Assembly: GCA_963742725.1 (NCBI GenBank)
Contig: CAVUMX010000003.1
Location: forward strand, 225,087 to 257,086
Length of the DNA stretch: 32,000 nucleotides
Source of the DNA: an uncultured Actinomycetota bacterium
GTDB lineage: Bacteria; Actinomycetota; Actinomycetes; Mycobacteriales; Cryptosporangiaceae
Direction: 5' to 3'
Part shown: positions 4,050 through 30,257 of the stretch, one piece after another
Position numbering within the stretch: position 1 is the first letter of the stretch
How the letters are laid out: each line of letters opens with the position of its first letter
Position numbers and translations under genes: made by a program
Notes under the pieces: model-generated
Told to the model about the DNA's origin: nothing
Databases searched by the model: none
The model's input: the letters and a program-made list of their open reading frames with translations, nothing else

Positions 4050-4062
4050 GGACGTACCTCCA

Positions 4063-7764: not shown

Positions 7765-7797
7765 GATCAACAATCATCCCTTCGTCCCTAGCGGTCT

Positions 7798-10310: not shown

Positions 10311-10700
10311 TCAGGCGACCAGACCCGGAACGTGAACTTCGGTAATTCGCGCAGGGCCTGATGTCCTGGGCCGGACACGACATATGTCATGCGGCCGGAG
10401 CGCCGCGGGTCGCGGGCAGTGATGGAGAAGCACGGTGAGGCTGGCGCGGCGAGCCGGAGCGCCGCGAGCAGACCGGCGAGCAGCCCGTGACCGGCGGGCG
10501 GCACTGTCGAGGAGAGGGGTGAACGTTGGACCCACCGGAACGCGGTCACGTGGTCGACCTCCACACCGCGTTTGGCCAGCAGTTCCTCGGCATCGCGGTA
10601 GGACGGCCCGAACGCTCTGTGCCACCAGCCACCAGCCAGCAGGCGCCAGCGATCTGCGCCCCCGGGGACGTGCCGGCGCTGGCTTGGACGGGTCGGACCG
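10311..10700 (-). mobile_element. IS6-family transposase remnant (N-terminal HTH part only, frameshifted and truncated)
   Basis: The minus strand reads ...RWRLLAGGWWHRAFGPSYRDAEELLAKRGVEVDHVTAFRWVQ, then after a frame change FTPLLDSAAR. This matches my memory of IS6/IS6100-type transposase N-termini (..VRWYLR..LSYRD.EELLAERG..VDH.T.YRWVQRFTP..). I saw no DDE catalytic region and no terminal inverted repeats. Confidence 0.55.
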
Positions 10701-10781
10701 CAGGCTCAACGTGGCGTCCCTGGGGCGGCGTGCCTGAACGACCACGGTGACCGTACGCAAAGCCGCAGGTACGCTGGGTCG

Positions 10782-15677: not shown

Positions 15678-16848
15678 CAGTGCACCTCCACCCGGACGCC
15701 ACCGGTCAGCTCGGCCAGCTCGTCGGGGAGGTCGGCGCCCATCTCCTCAGCCAGGCGCAGCGCTTCGTAGATCAGGGTTTCCACGATCTGGGACTCGGGC
15801 ACGGTTTTGATGACTTCGCCCTTGACGAAGATCTGGCCCTTGCCGTTCCCGGAGGCGACCCCCAGGTCGGCCTCACGCGCCTCACCCGGGCCCGTTCACC
15901 ACGCAGCCCATGACCGCGACCCGCAGCGGCACCGGCAACCCTTCCAGCCCGGCGGACACTTCCTCAGCCAACGTGTAGACGTCGACCTGCGCACGCCGCA
16001 CAGGAGGGGCAGGACACGATCTCCAGACCACGCTCGCGTAGACCCAACGATTCCAGGATCTGGTTACCGACCTTCACCTCCTCCACCGGCGGCGCCGACA
16101 GCGAGACCCGGATCGTGTCCCCGATCCCCTCAGCCAGCAGCGCCCCGAACGCCACCGCCGATTTGATGGTGCCCTGGAACGCCGGCCCGGCCTCCGTCAC
16201 ACCAAGGTGCAGCGGATAGTCACACGCCGCCGCCAACTGCCGGTACGCCTGCACCATCACCACCGGGTCGTTGTGCTTCACCGAAATCTTGATGTCCCGG
16301 AAATCGTGCTCCTCAAACAGCGAGCACTCCCACAACGCCGACTCCACCAACGCCTCCGGCGTCGCCCGCCCATACTTCTCCAGCAGCCGCTTATCCAACG
16401 AGCCGGCGTTCACCCCGATCCGGATCGGCACCCCCGCCCCCGCCGCCGCCCGCGCGATCTCCCCGACCTTGTCATCGAAGGCCTTGATGTTGCCCGGGTT
16501 CACCCGCACCGCCGCACACCCCGCCTCGATCGCCGCGAACACATACTTCGGCTGGAAATGAATATCGGCGATCACCGGAATCGGGGACTTCCGCGCGATG
16601 ATCGGCAACGCCTCCGCGTCATCCGCCGACGGCACCGCCACCCGCACGATCTGACACCCGGCGGCGGTGAGTTCCGCGATCTGCTGCAACGTCGCGTTGA
16701 TATCCGTCGTCGGCGTCGTCGTCATCGACTGCACCGACACCGGCGCATCCCCACCCACCAACACCGACCCCACCCTGATCTGACGAGACCGACGACGCAC
16801 AGCAAGCTTCGCAACGGGCAGGGCGGGCATGCCAAGCGAGAGAGTCAT
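15677..16848 (-). pseudogene. ispG: 4-hydroxy-3-methylbut-2-enyl diphosphate synthase (IspG/GcpE) interrupted by two +1 insertions in its 3' quarter (pseudogene or sequencing errors)
   Basis: From the ATG at 16848 the frame gives 294 aa of clear IspG ending ...[20 protein letters not shown] (stop at 15964). Dropping one base near 15998 restores [40 protein letters not shown]. Dropping one base in the C-run at 15885-15887 restores [37 protein letters not shown]...VEVH* (stop at 15677-15679). The span is 1172 nt, i.e. 390 codons plus 2. Confidence 0.85.
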
Positions 16849-18257
16849 GGCTTCACCTCGAGTGCGGTCTCCTCGGGTGTCGCTTTCCACCCGTCGTCGG
16901 AACTGCTGGTGCGGTTCGGGAGCAGTGCGGCGAGCAGCGCGCCGGCGAGCGCGACGGCGACCAGCAGCCACACGGTGTCGTGGAACGCCGTCACGCCGGC
17001 GGCCCGCGCCTGGTAGAACGCGGCCACGCCGGCGATGCCGAGCGAGCCGCCGACCCGTTGGACCACGTTGAACAGCGTGCTGACGTCGGTCACGTCGGCT
17101 GTGCTCTGGCGGGTCAGCATGCCGGTGATGAGCGGTTGCAGGGTCAGGCCCAGGGCGGCGCCGCGCCCGGTGAGCAGCAGCGCGATCAGCCACGGCGGCG
17201 TCTGCGCGGACACCGTGAGCAGCAGCGCGGTGGTCGCGGTGAGCACGGCCATCCCGCTGACCACCGTGGTCCGCAGCCCTACCGCGGCGATCAGCTTCTC
17301 GCCCAGCCCCGAGCAGAGCCCCATCGCGATGCCCTGCGGGAAGAGCACCAGGCCGGCGACCAGGGCGGAGTGGCCCTGCACCTGCAACGTGAAGATCGGG
17401 ATCAGGAACAGCACGGCGAACAGCACCACGGAAGCGACGACGCACACCGCCACCGCGACCCGGCTGCTCCGGTCGGCGAGCAGTCGCAGCGACACGGCCG
17501 GGTGCGCGGTCCGGCGTTCGTGGGCGAGGTACCCGGCGAGCAGGATCAGTCCGGCCAGGCAGCACGGCCAACCGTCGAGCGCGTCCCAGCCATCGCTGGT
17601 GATCACCGACGCGCCGTATGTGGCCAGCGTCGCACCGGCGGCCAGCATGGCGAGTCCGCGCAGGTCGAGCGGGGACCGGTCGGTGGTCGGCGGGTCGGGC
17701 GCGAGTTTGCGCGCACCGAGCAGGCCGATCGCGACCAGCGGCACGTTGATCAGGAAGATCGGCCGCCAGCCCGTGGACGCGGTGATCAGGCCGCCGATGG
17801 TCGGACCGAGTGCCGGGGCGAGGAAGAAGAACATCCCGGCCATTACCGGGGGCCGCATCTTGCCGCCGCCGCCGAAGAGCAGCGAGAGCGCGAGCGGGAT
17901 CAGCGGCGCGCTGGCCACCCCCTGCAACGCCCGCAGCCCGATCAGCGCCTCGATGCCCGGCGCGGCGGCACAGGCGGCCGAGGCGAGCCCGAACGCGACC
18001 AGCGCCGCGAGGTACGTACGCCGGGTGCCGTACCGGCGGGCCAGCCACGCCGTCGCCGGCAGTGCCGCGGCGATGCCGAGCAGGTAGGCGCTGACCGTCC
18101 AGCCGACGGCCGCGAGTGAGGCGTCCAGCTCGCGGGCGATCGTCGGCACCGCCACGTTCACCGCGTTCGAGTCCACCATGGACACGAAAGGGCCGCAGAC
18201 CAGCCCGATCAGCACCAGCGCGGACGGCCGGGCCGGCGCGCGCTCAGTGGGGGACAT
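16845..18257 (-). CDS. MFS transporter, DHA2 (EmrB/QacA-like) drug/metabolite exporter
   Basis: Multi-TM protein with the typical DHA2 N-terminus ([21 protein letters not shown]..., [11 protein letters not shown]). The ATG at 18257 is preceded by GAGGAGGA; the ORF track uses a GTG at 18275. Its stop overlaps the ispG ATG (ATGA), and its start overlaps the monooxygenase 3' end by 14 nt. Confidence 0.9.
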
Positions 18258-19548
18258 GGCGGTCCTCCTCGCCACGCCGCTGCAGGGGAAGCGCGGGCAT
18301 CGTGCCAGCCCGCGGATCGGGGAGCAGCCCGAGCTGCACCAGCCGGTCCACCCTGGTGAAGCGGTGCACGCCCAGGCCGGACATGTTGTACGTGATGATG
18401 AACTGGAGCCGCCGGTTGCGCCGGTTGCGCTGCAGCACGTGCCGGCCCAGCACCTGGCCGCGCCAGCCGGTGTCGGTGAACAGCGTGGCGAGGTTGTGGC
18501 TCAGCCGCGAGACGTAGTCGATCCGGGGCCGCCGCACCTGGTCGTACCGGGACAGCGCGGCGTCGATGACCGCGGCGGTGAGCCGGTCGGCGCCGGCCAG
18601 TTGCTCGCTGAGGGTCCAGGCGTCGGCGATGGCGGCGTTCATGCCCTGGCCGGCCATCGGGTGCACGCAGTGCGCGGCGTCACCGAGCAGCGCCAGGCCG
18701 GGCCGGGTCCAGGTGGGGGCATTGAACCGCCACGCGGCCAGCGCCTGGGCGCTCGCCACGCCGTCCCGCAGCCGGTCGGCGATCGGGGCGAGCGCGGGCA
18801 CGGTGCGCAGCAGCCAGCCGATCCAGACCGGCAGCCCCGGCCTGCCGATCCGCCGGAACTCGCCGCCCGGCAGCTGCACGTAGAGCCGGGCGCGGTCACC
18901 GGGCATCGGGAAGAGCAGGCGCAGGCCGTCCCTGGTGAGGTGCGCGACCACGTCGTCGCCGAGGCCGGTGACCCCGGTGAGGTCGAAGCCGATCAGGTCG
19001 TGCGGGTACCGGGTGCGCTCCACGGCGATGCCGGCGTCGGTGCGGATCCGCGAGGAGTTGCCGTCGCAGCCGACGACCAGGTGGGCGTCCACGTCGGTGC
19101 GCGCGTCCCCGTCGGCGAGCCGCACGCCGACCACCCGGCCGGCGCCGTCGCAGCGGAGCCGTTCCACCAGCACCCCGGAGCGCACCTCCACGCCGTCGCC
19201 GGGCTCGGTGCCGATCGCCGCCTTGATGTCGGCGTAGTAGTGCACCAGGCAGTGGTCGAACGGCGGCGGCAGCAACCGGTAGTCCAGCGCGCCCACCTCG
19301 ACGCCGTCGGCCGTGCGGCAGGCCAACCGCGGCGCCCGCAGCGCACCCCGGGCGGCCAGCCGCGGCAGCGCGCCGAGCCCGTCCAGGATCTGTACCGAGC
19401 GAGGCTGCAACAGCTCTCCCTTGTGGACCGGCGCGGGCACGGGCTGCTTCTCCACGAGCAGCACCCGCCGCCCCTGCCGGGCGAACGCACGGGCGGCGGT
19501 GAGCCCACCCACACCGGCGCCGCAGACCACCACGTCGTAGTCGCGCAT
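18244..19548 (-). CDS. FAD-dependent (class A flavoprotein) monooxygenase
   Basis: 434 aa from the ATG at 19548 with YDVVVCGAGVGGLTAARAFARQG (GxGxxG), GCDGNSSRIR (DG motif) and LLGDAAHCVHPMAGQGMNAAIADA (GD motif). The rest of the 724-aa track ORF is Arg-rich read-through into the cyclase gene. Confidence 0.9.
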   Translation of the reverse strand: MRDYDVVVCGAGVGGLTAARAFARQGRRVLLVEKQPVPAPVHKGELLQPRSVQILDGLGALPRLAARGALRAPRLACRTADGVEVGALDYRLLPPPFDHCLVHYYADIKAAIGTEPGDGVEVRSGVLVERLRCDGAGRVVGVRLADGDARTDVDAHLVVGCDGNSSRIRTDAGIAVERTRYPHDLIGFDLTGVTGLGDDVVAHLTRDGLRLLFPMPGDRARLYVQLPGGEFRRIGRPGLPVWIGWLLRTVPALAPIADRLRDGVASAQALAAWRFNAPTWTRPGLALLGDAAHCVHPMAGQGMNAAIADAWTLSEQLAGADRLTAAVIDAALSRYDQVRRPRIDYVSRLSHNLATLFTDTGWRGQVLGRHVLQRNRRNRRLQFIITYNMSGLGVHRFTRVDRLVQLGLLPDPRAGTMPALPLQRRGEEDRHVPH

Positions 19549-21218
19549 CACGCCGCTCCGGCGCGGTACCGGCCGAGTGCCTGGAGCGCGAACCCGTCGG
19601 CGATGTGATCGCACCAGTAGGTCAGGCCAAGGAAGTAGATGCCGACGAACGTCGCGGGCCAGCGCCCGTCCGGACGCTGCCGCGCCAGCAACCAGGCCAC
19701 CCCCGCACGGACCGCCGCCGAGCCGGCCTGCCCCGCGGCGATCAGCCCGAGCACCGCCCACGCGGTCTCCTCCACCGAGGGCGGCGCGGAGACTCCGTCG
19801 CCCCAGCCGCCGTCCTCGTGCTGGTGGGCGAGCAGCCAGTCGCGGCAGCCCACCGCGGTGGCGGTGCCGGCCAGGCCGAGCTGCCCGAGCGCGTCGAGCA
19901 CCCGCGCCGTGCCCGCGGTGTTGCCGCGGAACCAGATGTTGGCGAACGCGCCGTCGGACCGCTGCGTCCTGGCGAACCAGCGCACCGCCTTGGCCAGCGC
20001 CGGCTCGCCGGGCAAGCCGCCGGCCGCGTTTAGGCCGAGTACGGCGTGCGCGGTCATCACCGAACACGGCGAGTCCATCGAGACGCCCGCGTTGCTGGCG
20101 AAGCAGCCCCACGAGCCGTCCCGGTTCTGCATGGTGCGCAGCCAGTCGACGCCTTTTCGCAGGGCCGCCTCGTCGCCGCCGAGCTGAGCCAGCACCCCGA
20201 CCGCGCACGCGGTGTCGTCGGTGTCCGGCCAGCCCGAGGGCAGCGACCAGCCCCACCCGCCAGCGGGCGCACCGGTCGGCGGGAACGGGTCGGGGCGCTG
20301 GCAGCGGCGGATCCAGTCCGCGGTCCCGGCCAGCTCGGCGCGGTCGACACCGGCGTCGCGCAGGCCCTGCGCCACGTACATGCTCACCGAGAACTCGATG
20401 TCCCGATCGACCGGCCACGACCCGTCGGCGCGGACGGTGGCGCGTAGGTAGCGGACGTAGTCGTGGGCGAGGTCGAGCCCGACGCCGGCGCGCACCAGCC
20501 CGACGCAGACGATCGAGGCCATCAGCGCGGACTCCTCAACGCCGCCGGGACGATCCGGATCGCTGCTCTCGTACGCGTGGATGTCGGCGAGGTAGCGCAG
20601 CGCCTTCGGCTCGGCGAGCCGGTCCAGGCGGCGGCGCAGCGGGCCGGTGCGGCGGGTCCGCGCCTGCATCACACCCCACGACATCAGCCCGGGCACGGTG
20701 AACGAGAGCCGCTGGCGGAGCCGGCGCGGCAGCAGCACCAGCTCCAGCGGCATCCGGTCGATCCGGGCCGCGTCGTACAGGCCGGCCAGCGCGAGGTACT
20801 GCTGGCAGACCGCCTTGAGCGTGCACAGGGTCTTGTCCTCGACGGCGGCCATCCCACCGAACTCGCCGATCCGGGCGAGGCCCCGGGTGACCGCGAACAC
20901 CGACCGCTCCGGCTGGACCAGTTGCAGCGCGGCAACGGCGATCGCGGTGGCGTTCAGCGTGCTCGGTCCGTCTGGTGCGTCGCCCCAGCCGCCGTCCGCG
21001 GCCTGGGTCTCGCGTAACCAGCCGGCGCCGCGTACCACCAGCTCGCCGGAATCGGCCGCGAGGTGCAGCGCGATCACGGCCGATCCGGTGGACACGGCGG
21101 ACGAGGGCAGCGTGCCCTGCCACGAGCCGTCCGCACGGCGCAGGGCGAACAGCCCGTCGACCGCCGCCGCGATGCCCCGGTCCACCGTCTCGACAGCGGG
21201 TAACCGCACGCCGGTCAC
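19548..21218 (-). CDS. squalene-hopene-cyclase-family class II terpene cyclase, unusually short (556 aa)
   Basis: The GTG at 21218 forms a GTGA overlap with the SCP2 stop. DxDD motif GWPDTDDTACAV (codons at 20214-20225). Multiple QW repeats (LRETQAADGGWGD, LRTMQNRDGSWGC, ARTQRSDGAF, LLAHQHEDGGWGD, LLARQRPDGRWP). The C-terminus ...YFLGLTYWCDH..FALQALGRY parallels SHC. Confidence 0.88.
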   Translation of the reverse strand: MTGVRLPAVETVDRGIAAAVDGLFALRRADGSWQGTLPSSAVSTGSAVIALHLAADSGELVVRGAGWLRETQAADGGWGDAPDGPSTLNATAIAVAALQLVQPERSVFAVTRGLARIGEFGGMAAVEDKTLCTLKAVCQQYLALAGLYDAARIDRMPLELVLLPRRLRQRLSFTVPGLMSWGVMQARTRRTGPLRRRLDRLAEPKALRYLADIHAYESSDPDRPGGVEESALMASIVCVGLVRAGVGLDLAHDYVRYLRATVRADGSWPVDRDIEFSVSMYVAQGLRDAGVDRAELAGTADWIRRCQRPDPFPPTGAPAGGWGWSLPSGWPDTDDTACAVGVLAQLGGDEAALRKGVDWLRTMQNRDGSWGCFASNAGVSMDSPCSVMTAHAVLGLNAAGGLPGEPALAKAVRWFARTQRSDGAFANIWFRGNTAGTARVLDALGQLGLAGTATAVGCRDWLLAHQHEDGGWGDGVSAPPSVEETAWAVLGLIAAGQAGSAAVRAGVAWLLARQRPDGRWPATFVGIYFLGLTYWCDHIADGFALQALGRYRAGAA

Positions 21219-21694
21219 GCAGATCGCCCCCGCGGGTCGGCCTGCTGCTCCAGCCGCGCCTCGACCGCGCAGTTCTCGCCCGATCCAGGACCGGTTGTCT
21301 CGCCGCGCTTGAGCGCCTTCTTGTACCGGTTGAACAGCGAGCGCATCAGCAGCAGCTTCGGCATCGACGGCGCCTTGCGGATGTCCAGCAGCCCGCTCAC
21401 GATCGCCTCCCGACCGCCCAGCTCGCCGCTGGTGAGGCGGTGCAGGGTGAGCGGTTCGGTGCGAATCACGATGTCGGCCTGCTCGTACGGGATCGCACCA
21501 GGCTCGATCGCGCGACGGTCCCGCCCCACTGTGAGCAGGTACGGGGTGGGCTCCGGGCCGCCGGTCTGGAACTCGTACAGCACGGTGAGCGCGCCACCCG
21601 CCAGCCGCTGCGCCAGGGTCGGGTTGCGGCGGCTCACCTCCAGCATGTCCCGTAGCTCGGCGACCACGTCCTCGATGGTCATCTCGGTGCTCAT
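21215..21694 (-). CDS. SCP2 (sterol-carrier-protein-2-like) lipid-binding domain protein
   Basis: 159 aa from the ATG at 21694, which forms an ATGA overlap with the radical SAM stop. The SCP2-like pattern is ALTVLYEFQTGG..PYLLTVGRDRRAIEPG...ADIVIRTEPLTLHRLTSGELGGREAIVSGLLDIRKAPSMPKLLLMRSLF. Confidence 0.75.
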   Translation of the reverse strand: MSTEMTIEDVVAELRDMLEVSRRNPTLAQRLAGGALTVLYEFQTGGPEPTPYLLTVGRDRRAIEPGAIPYEQADIVIRTEPLTLHRLTSGELGGREAIVSGLLDIRKAPSMPKLLLMRSLFNRYKKALKRGETTGPGSGENCAVEARLEQQADPRGRSA

Positions 21695-22872
21695 CGGATA
21701 CCTCCGTCGCGGGCGTTGTGCGAGGCCAGCGAGAGGCCATCGACCGGGATGAACACCGGCGCCGGGCCTGCGGGGGACAGGCCCGCGGCGGGCGATGCGG
21801 CCGGAAGCGCGGCCAGCAGTTCCGTGGTCGACCGCCAGTAGGTGGGGTCCATCGCGTCCGGCTGTCCGGTGTGGATGATCGAGCGGGCCAGGCAGCCCAG
21901 ATCCTCGGCGCGGGCGCGCTTGAGCAGCGGCGCCTGCCAGATGTCGACGATGCTCTGCTCGCGCAGGCTGCCGATCTTGGCGTGCACGAACGGGCAGGAG
22001 TGGATGTCGCCGTTGGGCTGCACGCTGACCATGAACCGGCCGACCTTGCAGCCGGAGCTCTTCTCGAAGCCGACCGCGTGGCCGGCGTGGTGGTGCTCGC
22101 TCCCCGGCCGGTTCAGCTCGATACCCTGCGGGCAGGCCAGGCTCTCCTGGACCGGGACGTTGATGCCGAGCGGCGCGCCGATGTCGCGTAACCGGTGCAG
22201 GGTCTTGAGGAACAGCTCCTTGCCGATGATGTCCGCGCGGCGGTCCTCGGTGCCGCCGGCGGCGCGGCCGACCATGAAGATCGGCAGCAGGATCAGCTCC
22301 TCGACGCCCTCGTCGAGCGCCCACTGGAACAGGTCCGGGATGGCCTCGTAGCTGTCCTCGGTGACCACGATCCGGACGCTGGTGCGCAGCCCCTGCCGGA
22401 CGGCGTACCGGATCGTGCCCTTGGCGCCGGCCAGCGAGCCCGCCACGCCGCGGACCGCGTCGTGCACGGCATCGTCGCGGCTGTCGATGGAGACGCCGAT
22501 CATCTCCAGGCCGGCGTCGACGAGCCGGTCGATCTTCTCGTCGCGGACGTTCAGCCCGTTGGTCAGCAGCGCGGTGTAGATGCCGAGGTCGGTCGAGTAG
22601 TCGACGAGTTCGTAGATGTCGCGCCGGGTCAGCGGTTCGCCGCCGAGGAAGGTGACGAACATCAGGCCGCTGGCGGCGAAGTCGTCCAGGACGCGTTTCG
22701 CCTCCGCGGTGTCCAGCTCGTCGGGGTCCCGCTTGCGGGCGTCCGCGAAGCAGTAGTAGCACTTCAGGTTGCAGGCTCTGGTGACGATCCACCACGCGGA
22801 GGGCGGCGCCAGGAGACTCCCCGATCTCGCCCCGTCCATGTACTCCTCGAGCCAGCTCATGCCCTCCGGCAT
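21691..22872 (-). CDS. radical SAM enzyme with C-terminal auxiliary-cluster (Twitch/partial SPASM) region
   Basis: 393 aa with the CxxxCxxC motif in TRACNLKCYYCF (codons at 22750-22773), FLGGEPL, and the C-terminal GCKVGRFMVSVQPNGDIHSCPF typical of the SPASM/Twitch beta-hairpin. There is no full CxxCx5Cx3C block. The ATG at 22872 is preceded by GGAAGGGGGG. It is not HpnH-like by my recollection of that family. Confidence 0.88.
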   Translation of the reverse strand: MPEGMSWLEEYMDGARSGSLLAPPSAWWIVTRACNLKCYYCFADARKRDPDELDTAEAKRVLDDFAASGLMFVTFLGGEPLTRRDIYELVDYSTDLGIYTALLTNGLNVRDEKIDRLVDAGLEMIGVSIDSRDDAVHDAVRGVAGSLAGAKGTIRYAVRQGLRTSVRIVVTEDSYEAIPDLFQWALDEGVEELILLPIFMVGRAAGGTEDRRADIIGKELFLKTLHRLRDIGAPLGINVPVQESLACPQGIELNRPGSEHHHAGHAVGFEKSSGCKVGRFMVSVQPNGDIHSCPFVHAKIGSLREQSIVDIWQAPLLKRARAEDLGCLARSIIHTGQPDAMDPTYWRSTTELLAALPAASPAAGLSPAGPAPVFIPVDGLSLASHNARDGGIR

Positions 22873-22912
22873 CTGACCCCCCTTCCCTGGTGTGCCCGCG
22901 CCCGGGGCGCGG

Positions 22913-23674
22913 TCAGCGTCTGAAGATCCGGGTGCGGTAGGTCCACACCAGGTAGGCCAGCCCGAACAGGACGACCGCGTACAGCGCGCCCTGCCCGAGG
23001 TAGCGGTACACGTTGGTGACGTCGGTGAAGACCGCCGTCTTCAGGGCCTCGACGGCCGGCCAGTAGACGAGGTACTTCTCCGCCTCGGCACCGCCCCGGC
23101 CGAGCGCCATCTGGATGCCGGCGACCGCGATGATCACCATCGCCGCCTCGAACTCGCGCGGGATCAGCAGCCCGACGAGTGTGCCGAGAGCGACCCCGAT
23201 GAAGCCGATCAACAGCAGCGCCAGCGCGGTGAGCAGGACAGAGTGCACGTCCACCAGCGGCACGAAGATCGCCAGGAAGACGAGCGTCGAGATGAGCGTG
23301 ATCATCGCCAGCACCGCGAGCCGGGCCGACAGCAGCTGGTGCGGCCGGTATCCGACCAGGCGCAGCCGCCGCATCACCGCCGTGCTGCCGAGCACCGTGG
23401 TCAGCGCGGCGAACGAGCTGGTCACGCTGATGCCGAGGACGGCCAGGTAGAGCGCCTTGAACGCCCGGTCGTTCACCTGCAGTTCGGTGAATCCGTCGCC
23501 GGTGAAGACGTTCGCCGGTGCCACCTCGGTGGCGTCGCTGGTCAGGTAGCTGACCAGGAAGTACGAGGCCGGCATGAAGATCATGAACAGCACGGTCGGC
23601 CAGCGGCGCAGCAGTTCGCGCAGGAACATGCCGGTCGCGACGGGCGTGGCCCGGTGCGGAGTCGTCGTGGTCAT
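22913..23674 (-). CDS. ABC-2 type transporter permease
   Basis: 253 aa with about 6 hydrophobic segments. It is translationally coupled (ATGA at 23671-23674) to the upstream ABC ATPase, the classic ABC-2 exporter pair arrangement. Confidence 0.8.
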   Translation of the reverse strand: MTTTTPHRATPVATGMFLRELLRRWPTVLFMIFMPASYFLVSYLTSDATEVAPANVFTGDGFTELQVNDRAFKALYLAVLGISVTSSFAALTTVLGSTAVMRRLRLVGYRPHQLLSARLAVLAMITLISTLVFLAIFVPLVDVHSVLLTALALLLIGFIGVALGTLVGLLIPREFEAAMVIIAVAGIQMALGRGGAEAEKYLVYWPAVEALKTAVFTDVTNVYRYLGQGALYAVVLFGLAYLVWTYRTRIFRR

Positions 23675-24366
23675 GCGGCACCGCCCGCGACCTGGTCGGC
23701 CAGCCGGCCGCTCGCGACGACCCGGCCCTGCACCAGGTCGAGCATCGCGTCGAACCGGTCCTTCTCCGAGTGCATGTGACTCACCACCGCGACCGCGCCG
23801 CCGTCACGCCGGAACTGTTCGGCGTAGGCCCAGAACTTCAGGTAGGTGTCGTAGTCGAAGCCCTGGTAGGGCTCGTCGAGGATGAGCACGTCCGGGGTGT
23901 GCAGCAGCGAGGCGATCAGGTTCACCTTCTGCCGGGTACCGCCGGAGAGCCGGCTGACCCTGGTGCCGGCGTACTGGGTGCAGCCGAACGTCTCCATCAG
24001 CTCGCCCGCGCGGGCGGACACCTTCTCGGCGGTCAGCCCGTAACCGGCGCCGAAGAGGCGGAGCTGCTCGGCGATGGTCAGCGCGTCCAGCAGCGACGGC
24101 TCCTGCGGGCAGTAGCCGATCGAGCCGCTGACCAGGATCTCGCCTGAGTCCGGGCCGAGCAGGCCGACCAGGCATTTGAGCAGCGTGGACTTGCCCGCAC
24201 CGTTCTCGCCCTCGATGCCGACCAGGGTGCCGGCCGGTATCGAGAAGGTGACGTCGGTGAGCACCCGCCGCCGCCCGTAGCGCTTGGCCACGCCACGGAC
24301 GGAGACGGCGGGTGCCCCGGCGGCACCACGGCCGGCCGTGGGCCGAGCCTCCTCGTGCGTATGCAT
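23671..24366 (-). CDS. ABC transporter ATP-binding protein
   Basis: The ATG at 24366 is preceded by GAGAAGGAAG. Walker A GENGAGKST, signature LSGGTRQK, Walker B VLILDEP. Confidence 0.93.
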   Translation of the reverse strand: MHTHEEARPTAGRGAAGAPAVSVRGVAKRYGRRRVLTDVTFSIPAGTLVGIEGENGAGKSTLLKCLVGLLGPDSGEILVSGSIGYCPQEPSLLDALTIAEQLRLFGAGYGLTAEKVSARAGELMETFGCTQYAGTRVSRLSGGTRQKVNLIASLLHTPDVLILDEPYQGFDYDTYLKFWAYAEQFRRDGGAVAVVSHMHSEKDRFDAMLDLVQGRVVASGRLADQVAGGAA

Positions 24367-24451
24367 TCGGACTTCCTTCTCATTTGGGGTATCAATCACG
24401 CAGCCACCGTACGAGAACCGGGCGGCCACCGGTACCTGCTTCATCCGCAAT

Positions 24452-25726
24452 TCACCACGTCACCGGCACCGCCTCCGGTGCCTGCGCCGCGGTCTCGGTC
24501 AGCCAGCGCACCTCGTCGTACGGCACCGCCAGCCGCAGCTCGGGGAACCGCCGCAGCAGCGCGCCGAACCCGAGCTGCAGTTCCATCCGGGCGACCGGCG
24601 CGCCGAAGCAGAACGCCGGGCCGCTGCCGAAGGTCAGGTGCTGGTTCGCGGTGCCCCTGGTGATGTCGAACCGCTCAGCGCCGGCGAAGTGCGCGTCGTC
24701 CTGGTTGGCGGCGTGCCTGGCGACCAGCACGGTCGCGCCCGCCGGGATCAACACGCCGCCGATCTCGACGTCCGCCGTGGCGTACCGGCTGATCCCGTAC
24801 CCGTTGCCCGGCGGCGTGCGGCGCAGCATCTCCTCGGTCGCCGACTCGACCAGCGCGCCGCCGGCGAGAATGTCGTCCCGGAGCGCGGCGAACTGGTCCG
24901 GATGCCGGTGCAGCAGCAGGAAGCCCTTGCCGATCTCGGCCGCGGTCGTCTTGTAGCCGGCGACCAGCAGCGTCATCACCGTGATCCACAGCTCTTCCTC
25001 GGTGAGCCGGCCGTCTTCCTCGTCGGCCACCGCGACCAGCCCGCTGAGCAGGTCGTCCGCCGGTTCGCGGCGCTTGGCGGCACTCAGCGCCTTGGCGTAG
25101 TCGATCAGCGTGCCCGCCGCGCCCGCCCGGTCCGAGGGATCGTGGTCGCTGGAGAGCATCGTGTCCACCCAGTCGCGGAACTGCGCCTGGTCGGCGACCG
25201 GGACGCCGAGCATCGTGCAGATGACCGTGATCGGCAGCGGGTAGGCGAACGCGGCCATCAGGTCGGCCGGCGGGCCCTGCGCGGCCAGCTTCTCGACCAG
25301 GTGGTCCACAGTGGCCTGGATCCGCGGGCGCATCGCCTCGACCTGGCGCGGGGTGAACGCTCTGGCCACCAGCCGGCGCCAGCGGGTGTGCACCGGCGGG
25401 TCGGCGAACGGGTTGCCGTAGTTGCCGAACCCGATCGCGGTCTTCATCCTGGCGGCGTCGGGCCGATTGAGGTCGCGGCTGAACCGTACGTCGGACAGCA
25501 CCGCGCGCACGTCGGCGTACCGGGTGACCAGCCAGGCCCGGTCGCCGCTGGGCAGCGTCACCGTCGTGACCGGATCGTGCTCGCGCAGCCAGCCGTACTC
25601 CGCCTGGATGTCCAGCGGGTCGGCCTTGGGGAACGGGAAGCGCATCGGGCACCCTGGCCTGTTCACAGCCTCGGCGTTCGCAGGCCCTGCGTTCTCGGGC
25701 CCTGCGTTCACGGGCTCGGCGCTCAT
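24452..25726 (-). CDS. cytochrome P450 monooxygenase
   Basis: 424 aa from the ATG at 25726, which forms an ATGA overlap with the fusion-gene stop. I-helix LLVAGYKTTAAEIG, ExxR (EEMLRR), heme loop FGSGPAFCFGAPVAR. The 1250-aa track ORF is this gene plus an out-of-frame shadow of the upstream gene. Confidence 0.93.
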   Translation of the reverse strand: MSAEPVNAGPENAGPANAEAVNRPGCPMRFPFPKADPLDIQAEYGWLREHDPVTTVTLPSGDRAWLVTRYADVRAVLSDVRFSRDLNRPDAARMKTAIGFGNYGNPFADPPVHTRWRRLVARAFTPRQVEAMRPRIQATVDHLVEKLAAQGPPADLMAAFAYPLPITVICTMLGVPVADQAQFRDWVDTMLSSDHDPSDRAGAAGTLIDYAKALSAAKRREPADDLLSGLVAVADEEDGRLTEEELWITVMTLLVAGYKTTAAEIGKGFLLLHRHPDQFAALRDDILAGGALVESATEEMLRRTPPGNGYGISRYATADVEIGGVLIPAGATVLVARHAANQDDAHFAGAERFDITRGTANQHLTFGSGPAFCFGAPVARMELQLGFGALLRRFPELRLAVPYDEVRWLTETAAQAPEAVPVTW

Positions 25727-28329
25727 CGGGCGGTCCTCCGTAGTCCGGGCGCGCCGGCGGTGGCTTCGACTGCTTCGACGGCGGCGAGCAGCGCGGCGGG
25801 ATCCACCGACCGGCCCCGCTCGCCCTCGTCCTTGACGTGCCGCAGCAGCGCGCCGACGACCTGCTCGGTGGCCGTGACGCCGTGCTGTTCGAGCACGGCC
25901 TCCACACAGCTGCGGCCGGAGTGCTTGCCCAGCACGATCTGCCGGGTGGCGCCGATCCGCTCGGGCGGGTACGGCTCGTAGGTGCTCGGGTCGCGGAGCA
26001 GGCCGTCGACGTGCAGGCCGCTCTCGTGCGTGAACGCGTGGCGGCCGAGCACCGGCTTGTTCACCGGGATCGGCACGCCGGTGGCCGCCGAGACCGCGTT
26101 CGCGAGGGGTACGAACGCGGTCAGGTCCAGGCCGGTGTCGATGCCGTGCGCGACCTCCAGCGCGAGCGCCAACTCCTCCAGCGCCGCGTTGCCGGCGCGT
26201 TCGCCGACGCCGAGCACCGAGCCCTGCGCGCCGGACGCGCCGGCGCCGAGCCCGGCGAGGGAGTTGGCGGTGGCCAGCCCGAGGTCGTCGTGGCAGTGCA
26301 CGCCGACCGGGACGCTCACCGCGTCCGCCACGGTCCGCACCAGGTGGGCGAAGCCGGCCGGGTGGGCAACGCCGGCGGTGTCCGCGACGCCGACCGCGTC
26401 CGCGCCGGCGCCGATCGCGACGCCGTACATCTCCAGCAGGAAGTCCAGGTCGGTCCGGACCGCGTCCTCGGCGGCGAACACCACTGCGACGCCGGCCGAC
26501 TTGGCGTGCGCCACGGCGGTGGCCACCCGCTCCAGCAGGGCCGGCCTGGTGGTGCGGAGCTTGCGCAGGACGTGCGCGTCGGAGGTACCGACGAAGATCG
26601 CGACGCTGTCCACGCCCGCGCGCACAGCTGCGTCCACATCGGACTCCAGCGGCCTGGCGATGGCCTGGGTGACCGCGCTGAGCCCGAGGGCCGCCACCTC
26701 CCGCACCGCCGCCGCCTCCGCCGCGCTCACCGCCGGGAACCCGGCCTCGACCAGCCCGACGCCGAGCCGGTCGAGCAGGAGCGCGATCTCGACCTTCTGC
26801 GCCACGCTGAACGCCACGCCGGGCATCTGCTCGCCGTCGCGCAACGTGGTGTCCCCGAGCACCACCCGTGCGGGCAGAAGGGTGGCGGCGGGCGCCGGCT
26901 CCGGGGCGCGAAGCGAGGTGACGACCGGCGCCGGCGTGCTGCGCGACGCGGTGGTGGGCGCCGGTTCGGGGACGCTGCGCAGGAACTCGGCGAAGATCGC
27001 GTTGGCGTGCACCATGTCGGCGGCGCTGCCGTCGAACCGCAGGCGGCGGGCGAGGAACGCGCGGCGCGGGTTGGAGCGCCGGGTGAGGAAGACGTCGGCG
27101 AACACCGTGCCGGTCGTGGTGACCACCACCTCCGGCCGGTCGTCGGGTTCGTCCGCGCGGCGCAGCGTGCCGTCGCCGGAGATCAGCCGGACTTCGTGGT
27201 CGAGATCGGTGAGCACCACCCGGATCAGTCGGCGCCACGAGACCAGTCCCCGGAGTGGACGCTCCAGCGCGGACAGCCGGGCGAGCTGCGTGTCCACGTA
27301 CCGGTCGACGTCGTCGGCGGTGACCTGCTCGGGCGCGCCGTCGCGCTCGTGCCGCTGCCGCAACGCCCGCTCGGCGACGACGGTGGCCAGCGCGGCGGCG
27401 GCCGTGGCGGCCAGGCCGACGACCGCGCCCAGGCCGAGCGTGACGAACGCTCCGGCCAGCACCACACGCTCCACCAGCAGGATGCTGTGCGCCCGCAGCG
27501 CCACCACCCGCAGCGTGCCGCGCTCTGCGGCGGGCTCGGCGCCGGGCGGCTCGGCGGCGAGTGCCGCGATCAGTCCGAACGCGCGGCCGCCGGCCAGCAG
27601 TGCGATCCCGGCCAGCGCCGCCGCCGCCACCCGCGCGCCCTCGGCCGTGAGCACCGTGGCGACCGCGAGCGTGGCGGCGAGCAGGTAGCAGCCGAACGCC
27701 AGCCGCCGGGCCGCCGCGATCCCGTGCTGGACGGGCACCGTCCGGTACCCGCCGGCGCGGTCCCCGTCGACGTCGCGGATCGTGCCGACCAGATTGCTCG
27801 CGGCGTCGTGTGCCCACACCGCGGCGGCCGGCAGCAGCAGTGCCGCCGTCGGCCAGGTGGTCACCACCATCCCGCCGAACACCACGACCGCCGCGGTCAT
27901 CCCGCCGCGGACCAGGTTGCCCAGCACGCCGTGCGCCTTGAGCAGCCGGCTGTACCCGATCCCGGCCGCGAGGGCGGCGACCGCCACCAGCACCGTGCGC
28001 GGGTTGGCGACGGCGGCGAGCGCGGCGCCGCCGGCCACGCAGATCCACATCGCCGCCCAGGCCGTGCCGGCGGCCATCCGCCCGGACGGGATCGGGCGCG
28101 CGGGTTTGGCGATCCGGTCCAGCTCGCGGTCGAAGTAGTCGCCGCCGTACAGGCCGCCGATCCAGGCCAGGGTCGGCACCGCCCAGGCGACGGCGTACCG
28201 CCACGGCGCGGCCGACGCGTCAGCGAGCGCGGCCCCGGCCAGGCCGACCAGGCCGATGTAGAACACCGTGTAGGGGCGCCAGGTCTCGAGGTGGGCGAAC
28301 AGTCGGGTGGCGAGGCGTACGCGGGACAC
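25723..28329 (-). CDS. tri-domain fusion: UbiA-superfamily prenyltransferase (membrane) + SCP2-like domain + homocitrate/2-isopropylmalate/citramalate-synthase-like (DRE-TIM, HMGL-like) domain
   Basis: The GTG at 28329 lies 10 nt after the upstream TAG and follows GGGGG. aa 1-320 are hydrophobic and carry YGGDYFDRELDRIAKPARPIPSG and IRDVDGDRAGGYRTVPV. aa 335-452 read VVLTDLDHEVRLISGDG...VVVTTTGTVFADVFLTRRSNPRRAFLARRLRFDGSAADM. A Pro/Ala linker follows. aa 487-868 carry DTTLRDGEQ, HCHDDLGLATANS, GERAGNAALEE and THESGLHVDG. One uninterrupted 868-codon frame. Confidence 0.85.
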   Translation of the reverse strand: MSRVRLATRLFAHLETWRPYTVFYIGLVGLAGAALADASAAPWRYAVAWAVPTLAWIGGLYGGDYFDRELDRIAKPARPIPSGRMAAGTAWAAMWICVAGGAALAAVANPRTVLVAVAALAAGIGYSRLLKAHGVLGNLVRGGMTAAVVVFGGMVVTTWPTAALLLPAAAVWAHDAASNLVGTIRDVDGDRAGGYRTVPVQHGIAAARRLAFGCYLLAATLAVATVLTAEGARVAAAALAGIALLAGGRAFGLIAALAAEPPGAEPAAERGTLRVVALRAHSILLVERVVLAGAFVTLGLGAVVGLAATAAAALATVVAERALRQRHERDGAPEQVTADDVDRYVDTQLARLSALERPLRGLVSWRRLIRVVLTDLDHEVRLISGDGTLRRADEPDDRPEVVVTTTGTVFADVFLTRRSNPRRAFLARRLRFDGSAADMVHANAIFAEFLRSVPEPAPTTASRSTPAPVVTSLRAPEPAPAATLLPARVVLGDTTLRDGEQMPGVAFSVAQKVEIALLLDRLGVGLVEAGFPAVSAAEAAAVREVAALGLSAVTQAIARPLESDVDAAVRAGVDSVAIFVGTSDAHVLRKLRTTRPALLERVATAVAHAKSAGVAVVFAAEDAVRTDLDFLLEMYGVAIGAGADAVGVADTAGVAHPAGFAHLVRTVADAVSVPVGVHCHDDLGLATANSLAGLGAGASGAQGSVLGVGERAGNAALEELALALEVAHGIDTGLDLTAFVPLANAVSAATGVPIPVNKPVLGRHAFTHESGLHVDGLLRDPSTYEPYPPERIGATRQIVLGKHSGRSCVEAVLEQHGVTATEQVVGALLRHVKDEGERGRSVDPAALLAAVEAVEATAGAPGLRRTAR

Positions 28330-28339
28330 CGGCAGCCCC

Positions 28340-29473
28340 CTACTCGACGCGTTCGACCGCGGCGGTGACCATCGCGGCGAGCCGGTCCCGCGACGGCGAC
28401 GGCGCGAGCACCCCCAGCGCGTCCAGCGCGGTCCCGGCGTGCTGCGCCACGATCCTGCCGGCCTCCGCGAGCGCGTCGGTCTCCGCGAGCAGCCGCTGGA
28501 CCAGCTCGAACGTGCGCACCTCGGCGGCCTCGGAGCCGAAGCCGGCGGCCGCGTCGTCGAACGCCCGCTGCAACGACTGCCCGACCTCGGGCGGACCGAG
28601 CCGGCAGGCCACGATCAGCGGGAACGTCATGCGGCGGTTGCGGATGTCGCTGAGGAGATCCTTGCCGGCCACGCCGCTGCTGCTGCGGTACGCGAGCAGG
28701 TCATCGACCATCTGGAACGCGATCCCGAGCTGGTCGCCGTAGCTGGCCAGGGCGGCGACCTGGCGTTCGGTGCCGCCGCCGAGCAGGGCGCCCACCTCGC
28801 AGGCGCCACGGAACAGGGCGGCGGTCTTGCCACGCACCGTGTCGAAGTAGGCGTCCAGCCCGGCGCCGGCGTCGCCGCAGAGCTTCGCCTCCGAGGTCTG
28901 GCCGCGGCACAGGTCGACGCCTGCACTGGCCACGGCCCGAAGCGACGCGACGATGCGGTCGGCCGGGACACCCCGGTCGGCACACTCCGAGAGCGCCAGG
29001 AACAGCCGGAACAGCAGCGTGTCGCCGACCACGATGGCATGGTCGCGGCCGTACGCGGCGGGCACCGAGGGCCGGCCGCGGCGCATCGCGTCACCGTCGA
29101 TGATGTCGTCGTGGATCAGGCTGGCGACGTGGCCGTACTCGGCGCCCAGCGCGGCCGGCACGGCGTGCTCGACCTCGCCGCCGACCGCGGCGCACGACTC
29201 GAGCAGCAGGTACGGGCGGAACAGCTTGCCGGGCGGCCGCACCGCGTACCGGCACATCGCGTCCAACTCGTCGTCCGGGTCCCAGCCGCCGGCGATCTCT
29301 GCCTGCAGCACGCCGGGTTCGAGCGCACTCACCGTGTCGGTCAGCGCGGCGGCGTGCAGCCTGACACCGTTCAACCCGACGCCGTTCGGACCGGTGCCGT
29401 GAGTGGCTGTCTCACCTGAGCCCGTGTTGGTTAACGCGGAAATGTCCGCCGTCGCCGCAGCCGTCGAATCCAT
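28340..29473 (-). CDS. polyprenyl diphosphate synthase (third paralogue; DDxxD-type first motif)
   Basis: The ATG at 29473 is preceded by GGGGGG. Motifs SLIHDDIIDGDAMRRGRP and FQMVDDLLA. Small residues (A, S) sit at -5/-4 of the first motif. The ORF-track start at 29527 is a TTG with no ribosome-binding site. Confidence 0.88.
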   Translation of the reverse strand: MDSTAAATADISALTNTGSGETATHGTGPNGVGLNGVRLHAAALTDTVSALEPGVLQAEIAGGWDPDDELDAMCRYAVRPPGKLFRPYLLLESCAAVGGEVEHAVPAALGAEYGHVASLIHDDIIDGDAMRRGRPSVPAAYGRDHAIVVGDTLLFRLFLALSECADRGVPADRIVASLRAVASAGVDLCRGQTSEAKLCGDAGAGLDAYFDTVRGKTAALFRGACEVGALLGGGTERQVAALASYGDQLGIAFQMVDDLLAYRSSSGVAGKDLLSDIRNRRMTFPLIVACRLGPPEVGQSLQRAFDDAAAGFGSEAAEVRTFELVQRLLAETDALAEAGRIVAQHAGTALDALGVLAPSPSRDRLAAMVTAAVERVE

Positions 29474-30257
29474 CTCGACCCCCCGTAGGCCAATGAGTGT
29501 CAGAAGACTTGCCGCACAAGCCGGCAAGGGTCAAGCGACTGACAAAATATCGACAACGCCCATTGTTCATCACAGCAATGTAACTCGGATTGCGAATTCC
29601 ATTCATATTTTGCGCGACGGTATCCGTGGCCGGTTTTGGCATGATTGGCGTCACACCATGGCAGACCCTGGGTAGTCGTACGACTACCTAATGTAGCTAG
29701 AAAGGGTTCCCTGGTGGGCGGGCCCGTGCACCATGAAGATCCCATATGGCGAGACAGAAATCCCGCTCAACGGACTGTGAATAGCGTTCGTGTAGTTTGG
29801 TGATGATACGCCGGAAGTGGATACGCCCGGAATTGGCATTGATCGCGCGGTTCGCTCCGCGCGGCAGGAACGCCGCCACACTGGGTGCCGGATTCCGCCG
29901 ATATGTCGCCTAAAGCACTGCTCGGCCACTTATCGAACCGCCATCCCGGAGTGCCAGAGTAATTCGGGCAACGAATTGATCCGACCTACGGAAAACGCGC
30001 GCCCCGTTAGGCGACTCGAAACCCACTATTACCCGGAAATTCAAGCCGCCGGACGCCCGTTTGTACGGAGCATGAGTTCGGACGGTCGGCACCCGGGCCC
30101 GCTCGTCAGTTGCCCGTCGCCCCGCCGGCCACGCGTCCGAAGGGAACGGGGAACGCCGTTCCATTGCGTTGCAGGGTGTGGTCCAGTATCAACCAGTTGG
30201 TGACATTGGATGCGTGATGGGCGGGCTTGCTGGCGCGCTCGATGACGGAGGTGCGCC
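29474..30257. promoter_or_regulatory. divergent promoter/leader region between the long minus-strand operon and the carboxypeptidase gene
   Basis: About 0.78 kb with no convincing ORF and much lower G+C (hand count 30/60 for 29581-29640). It contains TTGACC and TTGTCA hexamers on the minus strand near 29528-29545, an 18-bp palindrome and a GC hairpin. I could not place the exact promoters. Confidence 0.4.
29671..29688. promoter_or_regulatory. perfect 18-bp palindrome GGTAGTCGTACGACTACC (candidate dimeric-regulator operator)
   Basis: The sequence is exactly self-complementary. It lies about 200 nt upstream of the first gene of the long operon, in the AT-rich leader. Confidence 0.35.

Follow-up and report, generated by a model that had tools for sequence, protein, structure and literature searches.

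A radical SAM enzyme and an SCP2-fold protein form a conserved gene pair in orphan isoprenoid gene clusters

The window analyzed here is a stretch of 32,000 nucleotides from an uncultured Actinomycetota bacterium of the Cryptosporangiaceae (assembly GCA_963742725.1, contig CAVUMX010000003.1, positions 225,087 to 257,086), and all window coordinates are given from its first letter. Its minus strand encodes a radical S-adenosylmethionine (SAM) enzyme of 393 aa (21691..22872), followed by a protein of 159 aa with a predicted SCP2 fold (21215..21694) and by a putative class II (beta-gamma) terpene cyclase of 556 aa (19548..21218). An original prediction, made from the letters of the DNA and their open reading frames (ORFs), had considered these three genes as an overlapping triplet and had proposed that the radical SAM enzyme acts on a polyprenyl or cyclized terpenoid presented by the SCP2 protein. 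We found that the conserved unit is the radical SAM-SCP2 pair, not the triplet, and that every context in which the pair was found is isoprenoid. On balance, we favor the view that the pair is an accessory lipid tailoring module, with the SCP2 protein as the substrate carrier, in an orphan meroterpenoid cluster.

The two genes adjoin in 12/12 loci with both ends visible, i.e., the window, Prauserella shujinwangii (L001), Amycolatopsis samaneae (L002), Streptosporangium subroseum (L003, repeated by L004), a Mycobacteriales metagenome-assembled genome (L085), the metagenomic contigs L086, L088, and L089, and the loci L087, L096, L098, and L099. The spacing between them ranges from -4 to +11 nt in all 11 gene-called loci and in L096 the tblastn matches lie about 35 nt apart. 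Beyond the pair itself, its closest link is to a gene that the original prediction had not related to its finding and that encodes a fusion of UbiA, SCP2, and homocitrate synthase (HCS)-like domains. The fusion, radical SAM, SCP2, and cyclase genes stand in one operon in 8/8 loci with enough flank, and the stop of the fusion gene overlaps the start of the radical SAM gene in L001, L002, L086, and L088. The junction between the SCP2 and cyclase genes overlaps in L002, L004, and L086, but the cyclase gene lies upstream in L089, where the order is synthase-cyclase-fusion-radical SAM-SCP2, and it is separated from the SCP2 gene by a P450 gene in L001 and by a TauE-like gene in L085. It was not seen beside the pair in L087 and L098. 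The adjacency of the pair is therefore independent of the cyclase, being kept where the latter is upstream, separated, or not seen alongside, and since the position of the cyclase varies, the triplet as first proposed is not the conserved unit. The pair stands at the head of an operon of its own in the branch that diverges most (54-55% identity), as in L098, where a radical SAM-SCP2-polyprenyl synthase operon is transcribed divergently from IspG. As a separate observation, a TauE-like membrane protein is encoded directly 3' of the SCP2 gene in two loci (L085, 11441-12202, and L097, 143-901).

As a control, we examined loci around radical SAM genes of 24-35% identity, obtained from a genome-contig scan with the generic radical SAM motifs GGEPLxR[KR]DI and TRACNLxCxY, with one family member among the matches listed. 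An SCP2 protein of either subtype was encoded in 0/79 of these loci (1.2 Mb), in contrast to 10/10 of the family loci tested. A scan of metagenome contigs with the SCP2 alignment gave four short loci, consistent with the pair pattern. L089 and L097 have a GC content of about 51%, and L089 holds the whole fusion/cyclase operon; the module is therefore not confined to high-GC actinomycetes. The pair is an optional module of the wider family of UbiA-fusion/cyclase clusters, since clusters with the fusion, cyclase, and epoxidase genes occur without it in Nocardia transvalensis (L092) and Kitasatospora brasiliensis (L093), both with a synthase-fusion-cyclase arrangement and an epoxidase. In Kibdelosporangium aridum (L091), the synthase and fusion genes only are found. 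In L092 (14280-17118) and L093 (4263-7075), a KASIII-like gene (ACP_syn_III_C) is followed by a gene encoding an AMP-binding ligase, and these two genes may constitute an alternative tail-processing module.

The coordinates and overlaps of the three window genes were confirmed as initially described. They are chained by an ATGA at 21694-21691, common to the stop of the radical SAM gene and the start of the SCP2 gene, and by a GTGA at 21218-21215, common to the stop of the SCP2 gene and the GTG start of the cyclase gene. The radical SAM gene starts with the ATG at 22872, just after a GGAAGGGGGG ribosome-binding site. The frames of the pair are backed by near-identical metagenomic proteins of equal lengths (P0001, 393 aa, 97%; P0092, 159 aa, 97%), and the GTG start leads to a cyclase of 556 aa, its orthologues having 554-569 aa (n=8). 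Overlaps run past the triplet, with one base at 19548 common to the cyclase stop and the epoxidase ATG, and a further ATGA at 25726-25723 shared by the fusion stop and the P450 start. Four-base gene overlaps are frequent in high-GC actinomycetes, so a single overlap says little and it is conservation that counts.

The assignment of the 393-aa protein as a radical SAM enzyme is supported by Pfam (Radical_SAM, PF04055, 99.8 bits for a gathering score of 29.5), by the cysteines of 31 orthologues (53-84% identity), and by an AlphaFold2 (AF2) model with a predicted local distance difference test score (pLDDT) of 86.3, whose nearest folds are SkfB, PqqE, SuiB, BlsE, MoaA, DesII, and anSME, all radical SAM enzymes. 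The Pfam SPASM model matches with 32.9 bits, only at residues 275-323. Both motifs noticed from the sequence are present and invariant in the orthologue alignment, CNLKCYYC corresponding to C34, C38, and C41 (CX3CX2C) and the GCKVGRFMVSVQPNGDIHSCPF hairpin to C275...G288-x4-C293 (CX12GX4C). The alignment contains seven invariant cysteines, namely this N-terminal triad and exactly four others (C247, C275, C293, and C327), as well as eight invariant arginines. By comparison with anSME, we take the four additional cysteines to be the Aux I ligand set, composed of an upstream cysteine, the hairpin pair, and the last cysteine of CX2CX5CX3C. The seven-cysteine SPASM pattern (CX9-15GX4C...CX2CX5CX3C...C) is not found in the enzyme, in which the CX2CX5CX3C block is deleted; what is found is a C-terminal hairpin domain with a single auxiliary-cluster ligand set, as in Twitch proteins. 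Judged by this cysteine count of three core and four auxiliary ligands, the enzyme is Twitch-like, in agreement with the original prediction, with one predicted auxiliary cluster and the second SPASM site apparently lost. The nearest outgroup, P0199, was found in an exhaustive search (43% identity by BLASTP, 46% in the phmmer table) and keeps the full SPASM cysteine motif, with CGTCEIRYECGGC and one more cysteine, but lacks C247. Where P0199 has CGTCEIRYECGGC, the window family shows a gap of about 14 residues in which only C327 is kept. The window family appears to descend from an ancestor with a complete SPASM domain through loss of the CX2CX5CX3C segment, P0199 probably marking the place where the second auxiliary cluster was lost.

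We then compared the radical SAM enzyme with curated families. AhbD, NirJ2, TIGR04347, NirJ, TIGR04053, and MftC all scored 125-139 bits against cut-offs of 265-525, and the best NCBIfam scores do not exceed 139 bits where the curated cut-offs range from 265 to 650 (score/cut-off: AhbD 139.1/500, NirJ2 138.5/500, NirJ 134.6/515, MftC 124.9/265, PqqE 96.3/381). By these scores, the enzyme reaches no curated peptide, heme, or cofactor family, and neither a firm affiliation to a known non-lipid family nor a cognate substrate gene, the two findings that together would have spoken against a lipid substrate, was encountered. The nearest solved structures by sequence are SkfB, BlsE, PqqE, and MoaA, and BtrN is also among the Twitch matches. 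Pfam and the model revealed neither an N-terminal recognition element (RRE) of the kind found in maturases of RiPPs (peptides made on the ribosome and modified after translation) nor a B12 domain; one N-terminal helix precedes the core, which starts near residue 28. The lipid radical SAM enzyme GDGT-MAS (7tol) aligns with the core only (residues 30-142, E=1.8e-9), and no hopanoid radical SAM model was among the 25 best of 74 NCBIfam matches. A word-indexed search gave about 57 clusters (90% identity level) with 53-97% identity to the window enzyme, the next matches being at 32%, and among 1.84 billion 50%-identity representatives the full-length scores fell from 487 bits (P0051) to 272 (P0199) and did not exceed 183 thereafter; a family fragment of 153 aa reached 188. 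These searches indicate a family that is small, rare, and sharply bounded. Examples of family-specific motifs are LDIRKAPSMPKLL and the segment GCKVGRF..SVQPNGD of the radical SAM enzyme.

The SCP2 assignment of the 159-aa protein was only partly sustained by the window protein, which gives 12.6 bits against Pfam SCP2 (PF02036; E=0.18, gathering score 21.3), matches nothing in Pfam and NCBIfam at E<=0.01, and retrieves spurious kinase matches only in a single-sequence search of the PDB. Since it fails the family scans when taken alone, the assignment needed its orthologues and a structure model. PF02036 matches 26/32 orthologues at E<=1 (best 2.8e-5), and the orthologue profile ranks the SCP2 proteins of Thermus and Yarrowia first in the PDB, though with E=0.13-0.23. 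The AF2 model (pLDDT 85.5) displays helices and five strands in SCP2 order, and the PDB matches obtained with Foldseek at E<=1e-3 are all (39/39) SCP2 proteins, UbiJ-SCP2, or SCP2-like domains of alkylsulfatases (E 2e-6 to 6e-4, probability 1.00). UbiJ-SCP2 (6h6o) was retrieved with E=1.2e-4 and a TM-score on target of 0.66, at a sequence identity of 15-19%. We consider the predicted SCP2 fold to be sound, and we infer that the protein would bind a lipid. Its resemblance to the known SCP2 proteins is confined to the fold. The SCP2 core covers residues 1 to about 130 and is followed, from about residue 131, by a disordered tail of variable length and low model confidence. In the closest relatives, this tail (window 21215-21307, minus strand, residues ~131-159) carries a C-A-V-E/D motif, found twice in P0097; many orthologues stop right after the core and have no tail (P0120, P0121, P0128, P0130, and those of L003 and L085). 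The stand-alone SCP2 family and the SCP2 domain of the fusion are related at the fold and Pfam level only (hhalign against a single fusion middle domain, E=0.27; profile-profile comparison, E=0.0016, probability 16%).

The genes around the pair define the type of cluster. The phenalinolactone, atolypene, brasilicardin, and tiancilactone clusters have a core composed of a polyprenyl synthase, a UbiA enzyme, a flavin epoxidase, and a class II cyclase, and the order prenylation-epoxidation-cyclization, or epoxidation first, was established in 2024 (PMC11317874, PMC11600129). All four core genes are present on one strand of the window (18244-29527), which, judged by this gene content, contains a bacterial meroterpenoid cluster of the PlaT1-4/Ato type. 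Besides the cyclase gene, the core comprises genes for a polyprenyl diphosphate synthase of PlaT4/AtoC type, the start codon of which is uncertain (28340..29527, minus strand; Pfam polyprenyl_synt 180.8 bits), for a squalene-epoxidase-like monooxygenase of PlaT1/AtoF type dependent on flavin adenine dinucleotide (FAD) (18244..19548, minus strand; FAD_binding_3 110 bits, SE 36 bits), and for the UbiA fusion. The full core set is also present in L001, L003, and L086, and no polyprenyl synthase is recognizable in L002 and L088. Epoxidase and pair are in one operon in 6/8 loci with enough flank, the contig of L089 ending before an epoxidase gene could show.

The cyclase matches Pfam SQHop_cyclase_N (103 bits) and SQHop_cyclase_C (118.6 bits), has the sequence DTDDTA at residues 332-337, and scores 143 bits, below cut-off, with the NCBIfam squalene/oxidosqualene cyclase subfamily. 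With both toroid domains and a DxDD(T) motif, it is predicted to be a class II enzyme similar to squalene-hopene and oxidosqualene cyclases. Of eight orthologues, seven have xxDDTx at this place and one has xxGDTx, with sequences such as ETDDTA, NADDTA, DIDDTS, and, in one case, NSGDTA, and the aspartate in the fourth position is invariant. The motif reported for AtoE, Bra4, and PlaT2 is xxx(E/D)(T/S)xE. The single invariant acid is thus also in the fourth position of these enzymes, L002 reading NSGDTAS, whereas most cyclases of the present family, that of the window included, keep the DxDD aspartates and lack the Glu found in the seventh position of the AtoE/Bra4/PlaT2 type.

The fusion protein (25723..28329, minus strand, 868 aa) consists of a UbiA domain (residues ~1-300), an SCP2 domain (~340-450), and a DRE-TIM domain similar to homocitrate and isopropylmalate synthases (HCS/IPMS; ~485-860). 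Pfam gives 102.7 bits for UbiA, 246.5 for HMGL-like, and 73.2 for HCS_D2, and the NCBIfam IPMS/HCS models give 373-415 bits, below their cut-offs. When the middle domain is searched alone, it matches SCP2 with 23.5 bits, above the gathering score, as do 16/20 of its orthologues. Conservation of the catalytic motifs of the two enzymatic domains (DxxDxxxD, TTLRDGEQ, and HCH) is 93-100% among 61 fusions. These proteins fall into at least 54 clusters from Streptomyces, Kitasatospora, Nocardia, Amycolatopsis, Kibdelosporangium, Paractinoplanes, and Frankiaceae, and we saw the fusion in the window and in L001, L002, L003, L085, L086, L088, L089, L091, L092, and L093. No description of this architecture was found in the literature searched. 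The fusion may bear on the acceptor of PlaT3-type enzymes. Another kind of fusion was observed in P0196 (Polymorphospora sp., 926 aa), which combines UbiA with both squalene-hopene-cyclase domains in one chain.

From the gene context, we infer that the radical SAM enzyme acts on a lipid presented by the SCP2 protein, because the two genes are invariably adjacent and are coupled to the fusion gene. A further reason is that SCP2 proteins serve polyprenyl-modifying enzymes in ubiquinone synthesis, namely UbiJ and, in the anaerobic pathway, UbiT together with the Fe-S hydroxylases UbiU/UbiV, UbiJ-SCP2 being a polyprenyl-quinone binder. The isoprenoid context found throughout agrees with the polyprenyl or terpenoid substrate first suggested; since the cluster is of the PlaT1-4/Ato type, however, the substrate would rather be a prenylated acid than a bare polyprenyl chain. 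An acid is also suggested by the eight invariant arginines, which could bind a carboxylate head, and a role in the acid tail by the clusters devoid of the pair, since the ligase/KASIII pair that they carry would also act on a carboxylate. The chemistry would be oxidative, because the nearest radical SAM families (AhbD, NirJ, MftC, BlsE, SkfB, anSME, and BtrN) use an auxiliary cluster for radical reactions that are oxidative or decarboxylating.

In the scheme that we propose, the polyprenyl synthase would make a polyprenyl diphosphate, the UbiA domain of the fusion would join this chain to a small acid acceptor, and the fused SCP2 domain would pass the lipid to the fused HCS/IPMS-like domain. 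The FAD epoxidase and the class II cyclase would form the polycyclic core. The stand-alone SCP2 protein could extract the lipophilic acid intermediate at some stage between prenylation and late tailoring and present it to the soluble radical SAM enzyme. The latter would cleave SAM to a 5'-deoxyadenosyl radical and take a hydrogen atom from the intermediate, the single, fully cysteine-ligated auxiliary [4Fe-4S] cluster acting as an electron sink. The net two-electron oxidation might be an oxidative decarboxylation, a desaturation, or a C-C or C-O ring closure in the acid tail. The SCP2 protein as carrier, the prenylated acid as substrate, and the type of radical chemistry are all deduced from these comparisons, and we are far less confident in any specific reaction than in lipid tailoring as such. 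Still more tentatively than lipid tailoring itself, it is conceivable that the pair is the first two-component lipid radical SAM system, in which a dedicated SCP2 protein takes, for a hydrophobic substrate, the role that RRE or PqqD domains have for peptides, and that it performs a radical step new to terpenoid biosynthesis, for instance an oxidative decarboxylation or a C-C ring closure, in the acid tail of a prenylated alkylmalate or alpha-keto acid delivered by the fusion.

Several points weigh against lipid tailoring by the pair. Since the fusion already has its own SCP2 domain, the need for a second carrier is not obvious. Tetrapyrroles, peptides, and nucleosides, but not lipids, are the substrates of the best relatives by sequence of the radical SAM enzyme, whose likeness to GDGT-MAS is limited to the core. 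The binding of the radical SAM enzyme or of a lipid by the SCP2 protein is deduced from context, and this protein might serve another enzyme of the operon instead, such as the cyclase, the epoxidase, or the P450. In addition, clusters of this subtype are orphan, the neighborhood co-occurrence comes from about 12 loci, the KASIII/ligase contrast comes from two clusters (L092 and L093), and the fusion gene was not seen beside the pair in the short contigs L087 and L098.

Among the other explanations, the most serious is that the radical SAM enzyme acts on a soluble small molecule, for example by making or modifying the acid acceptor or the product of the HCS-like domain ahead of prenylation, the SCP2 protein serving other enzymes of the operon (UbiA hand-off, epoxidase, cyclase, or P450) and the adjacency reflecting operon packing. 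It would fit with the soluble substrates used by the nearest curated families, with the position of the radical SAM gene immediately after the fusion gene, with an overlap, in four loci, and with the fact that the acceptor of PlaT3-type UbiA enzymes is still to be identified (PMC11317874). The eight invariant arginines would suit a small polycarboxylate but could just as well accommodate a lipid acid by its carboxylate head. Moreover, the adjacency of the radical SAM and SCP2 genes outlasts every rearrangement, including those in which the cyclase has moved (L089) or the fusion is not adjacent (L087 and L098), and the existence of fusion clusters devoid of the radical SAM gene (L092 and L093) argues that the enzyme is not needed for acceptor supply. 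We consequently consider a soluble substrate unlikely.

The module could also be an oxygen-independent route replacing the FAD epoxidase or P450 step, comparable to UbiT with UbiU/UbiV. UbiJ-SCP2 is indeed among the structural matches, and L085 has the pair and a cyclase with a canonical DTDDTA motif but no epoxidase gene within 10 kb. However, epoxidase and pair occur together in the 6/8 loci mentioned above and are thus not alternatives, we know of no radical SAM enzyme of this type that epoxidizes or hydroxylates alkenes, and the host genera Streptosporangium, Prauserella, and Amycolatopsis are aerobic actinomycetes. Such a route seems very improbable.

A comparably slim chance is left to a RiPP-like system, in which the target of the radical SAM enzyme would be a ribosomal peptide or the SCP2 protein itself, in its disordered C-terminal tail. 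The best matches among solved structures are RiPP maturases (SkfB, PqqE, and SuiB), and the cysteine motif C-A-V-E/D recurs in the tails of the closest orthologues, where P0097 has it duplicated; this motif is missing, however, from the many orthologues that end after the SCP2 core, and the tail is of variable length and low model confidence. As the original prediction had pointed out, the intergenic gaps leave no room for a precursor peptide, the one between the stop of the ABC permease gene and the start of the radical SAM gene being of 40 nt (22873-22912) and that between the ABC ATPase and P450 genes of at most 82 nt. No conserved small ORF was found across the orthologous loci examined. 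Since an RRE or PqqD-like domain and space for a precursor are both lacking and the contexts are isoprenoid throughout, the RiPP reading was rejected.

Finally, the enzyme might be a diverged maturase (AhbD, NirJ, or MftC type) for heme, heme d1, or a cofactor that lies in the terpene cluster by chance, perhaps serving the heme of the neighboring P450. We regard this idea as the least probable of all. The top NCBIfam scores that suggest it do not come near the equivalog cut-offs, and the enzyme has lost the second auxiliary cluster site by deletion. Other ahb, nir, or mft genes are missing from the neighborhood, a P450 is not adjacent to the pair in L085, L086, and L089, and the conserved translational coupling to SCP2 and to the UbiA fusion would be left unexplained. 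Membership in the AhbD, NirJ, and MftC families was rejected on the curated cut-offs.

The pair belongs to a 12-gene minus-strand isoprenoid block (13917-29527), transcribed in the order polyprenyl synthase, UbiA-SCP2-HCS fusion, P450, ABC ATPase, ABC permease, radical SAM, SCP2, cyclase, FAD epoxidase, MFS transporter, IspG, and DXS. The cytochrome P450 (24452..25726, 424 aa), identified as an ORF, gives tblastn matches to p450-annotated genes in L001, L002, and L003. The ABC-2 ATPase (23671-24369; Pfam ABC_tran 101 bits) and permease (22913-23674; ABC2_membrane 29.6 bits) genes sit between the fusion/P450 genes and the radical SAM gene, an insertion equally found in L003 and L085. The MFS transporter (16845..18275) has an orthologue in L003 with Pfam MFS_1. 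Two cluster-linked paralogues of the methylerythritol phosphate (MEP) pathway complete the block, DXS (13917-15677, from its ORF translation) and IspG (~15758-16848, found by tblastn with L002 IspG). DXS, IspG, and IspH likewise flank the orthologous clusters L002, L003, L004, L091, and L098. The ispG copy (15758-16848, minus strand) matches L002 IspG in three frames, with two frameshifts near 16000-16019 and 15894. It may be a decaying paralogue, or the assembly may contain indel errors, which calls for caution as to exact gene ends elsewhere in the window.

Other features of the window lie outside this block. A second set of terpenoid genes (3225-10307, minus strand) has a GC content of about 0.61, versus 0.72-0.76 elsewhere, and encodes a short-chain dehydrogenase/reductase, an aldehyde dehydrogenase, a HAD hydrolase, a class II cyclase-like protein (partial SQHop_cyclase_C), a P450, and a polyprenyl synthase; it could be a horizontally acquired drimane-type cluster. 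A further polyprenyl synthase is encoded at 941-2233. Beside and between the terpenoid sets, three minus-strand ORFs of 443, 378, and 405 aa (10311-11642, 11658-12794, and 30654-31871) gave no match in Pfam or NCBIfam. Searches of the window for Rfam families and for tRNAs were empty.

Immunosuppressive and antibacterial leads are found among the bacterial meroterpenoids of the phenalinolactone/brasilicardin class. The first steps of their biosynthesis were settled only in 2024, and the prenyl acceptor and the processing of the tail remain to be worked out (PMC11317874). If the radical SAM enzyme does act on a lipid, radical SAM chemistry would extend to meroterpenoid tailoring, and the pair would provide a general model for the access of soluble Fe-S enzymes to substrates derived from membranes. 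The compact cluster is conserved among cultured hosts (Streptosporangium subroseum, Prauserella shujinwangii, and Amycolatopsis samaneae), and Nocardia transvalensis and Kitasatospora brasiliensis provide natural comparators without the module; the question is therefore directly testable, and the pair is a solid lead for genome mining.

The cluster type itself is known, and this subtype brings three uncharacterized elements to it, the rare Twitch-type radical SAM enzyme, its dedicated SCP2 partner, and the UbiA-SCP2-HCS fusion. As in the PlaT1-4, AtoC-F, and Bra systems (phenalinolactone, atolypene, brasilicardin, tiancilactone, and longestin), the window cluster has the four core genes, extra dxs and ispG genes, and an accessory P450 and transporters. 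It differs from them in that its UbiA is fused to SCP2 and HCS/IPMS-like domains, in that the radical SAM-SCP2 pair is inserted, and in the canonical DTDDTA motif of its cyclase as compared with AtoE, Bra4, and PlaT2. The texts of PMC11317874 and PMC11600129 that we searched mention no radical SAM or SCP2 among the tailoring genes, and in the literature searched no paper ties either protein to PlaT-type clusters or describes their pairing, which bears out the view that it is unusual.

With Twitch (SkfB, BlsE, BtrN, and MoaA) and SPASM (PqqE, SuiB, anSME, AhbD, NirJ, and MftC) enzymes, the window radical SAM enzyme shares the CX3CX2C motif and the CX12GX4C hairpin; unlike them, it has no RRE, is encoded in a terpenoid operon, and has an SCP2 partner rather than a peptide chaperone. 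Among radical SAM enzymes acting on lipids, HpnH offers a parallel, as its gene in the hopanoid clusters of Streptomyces likewise neighbors those for a class II cyclase, DXS, and IspG. The known lipid enzymes comprise HpnH, HpnJ, HpnP/R, Tes/GDGT-MAS, Mss, Gms, GrsA/B, Gmm, Cds, Jaw5, and the ladderane enzymes, and the 2026 review that covers them does not contain the present pairing (PMC13459092). In comparison, the window enzyme has neither a B12 domain nor a second auxiliary cluster, and none of those enzymes has a dedicated SCP2 partner. The SCP2 proteins of the Ubi pathway, which are likewise small and encoded with enzymes acting on polyprenyl substrates, are the closest functional precedent for presentation to a soluble metalloenzyme, with the difference that the window combines its SCP2 protein with a radical SAM enzyme instead of a hydroxylase of the flavin or U32 family, in a cluster that has no quinone pathway.

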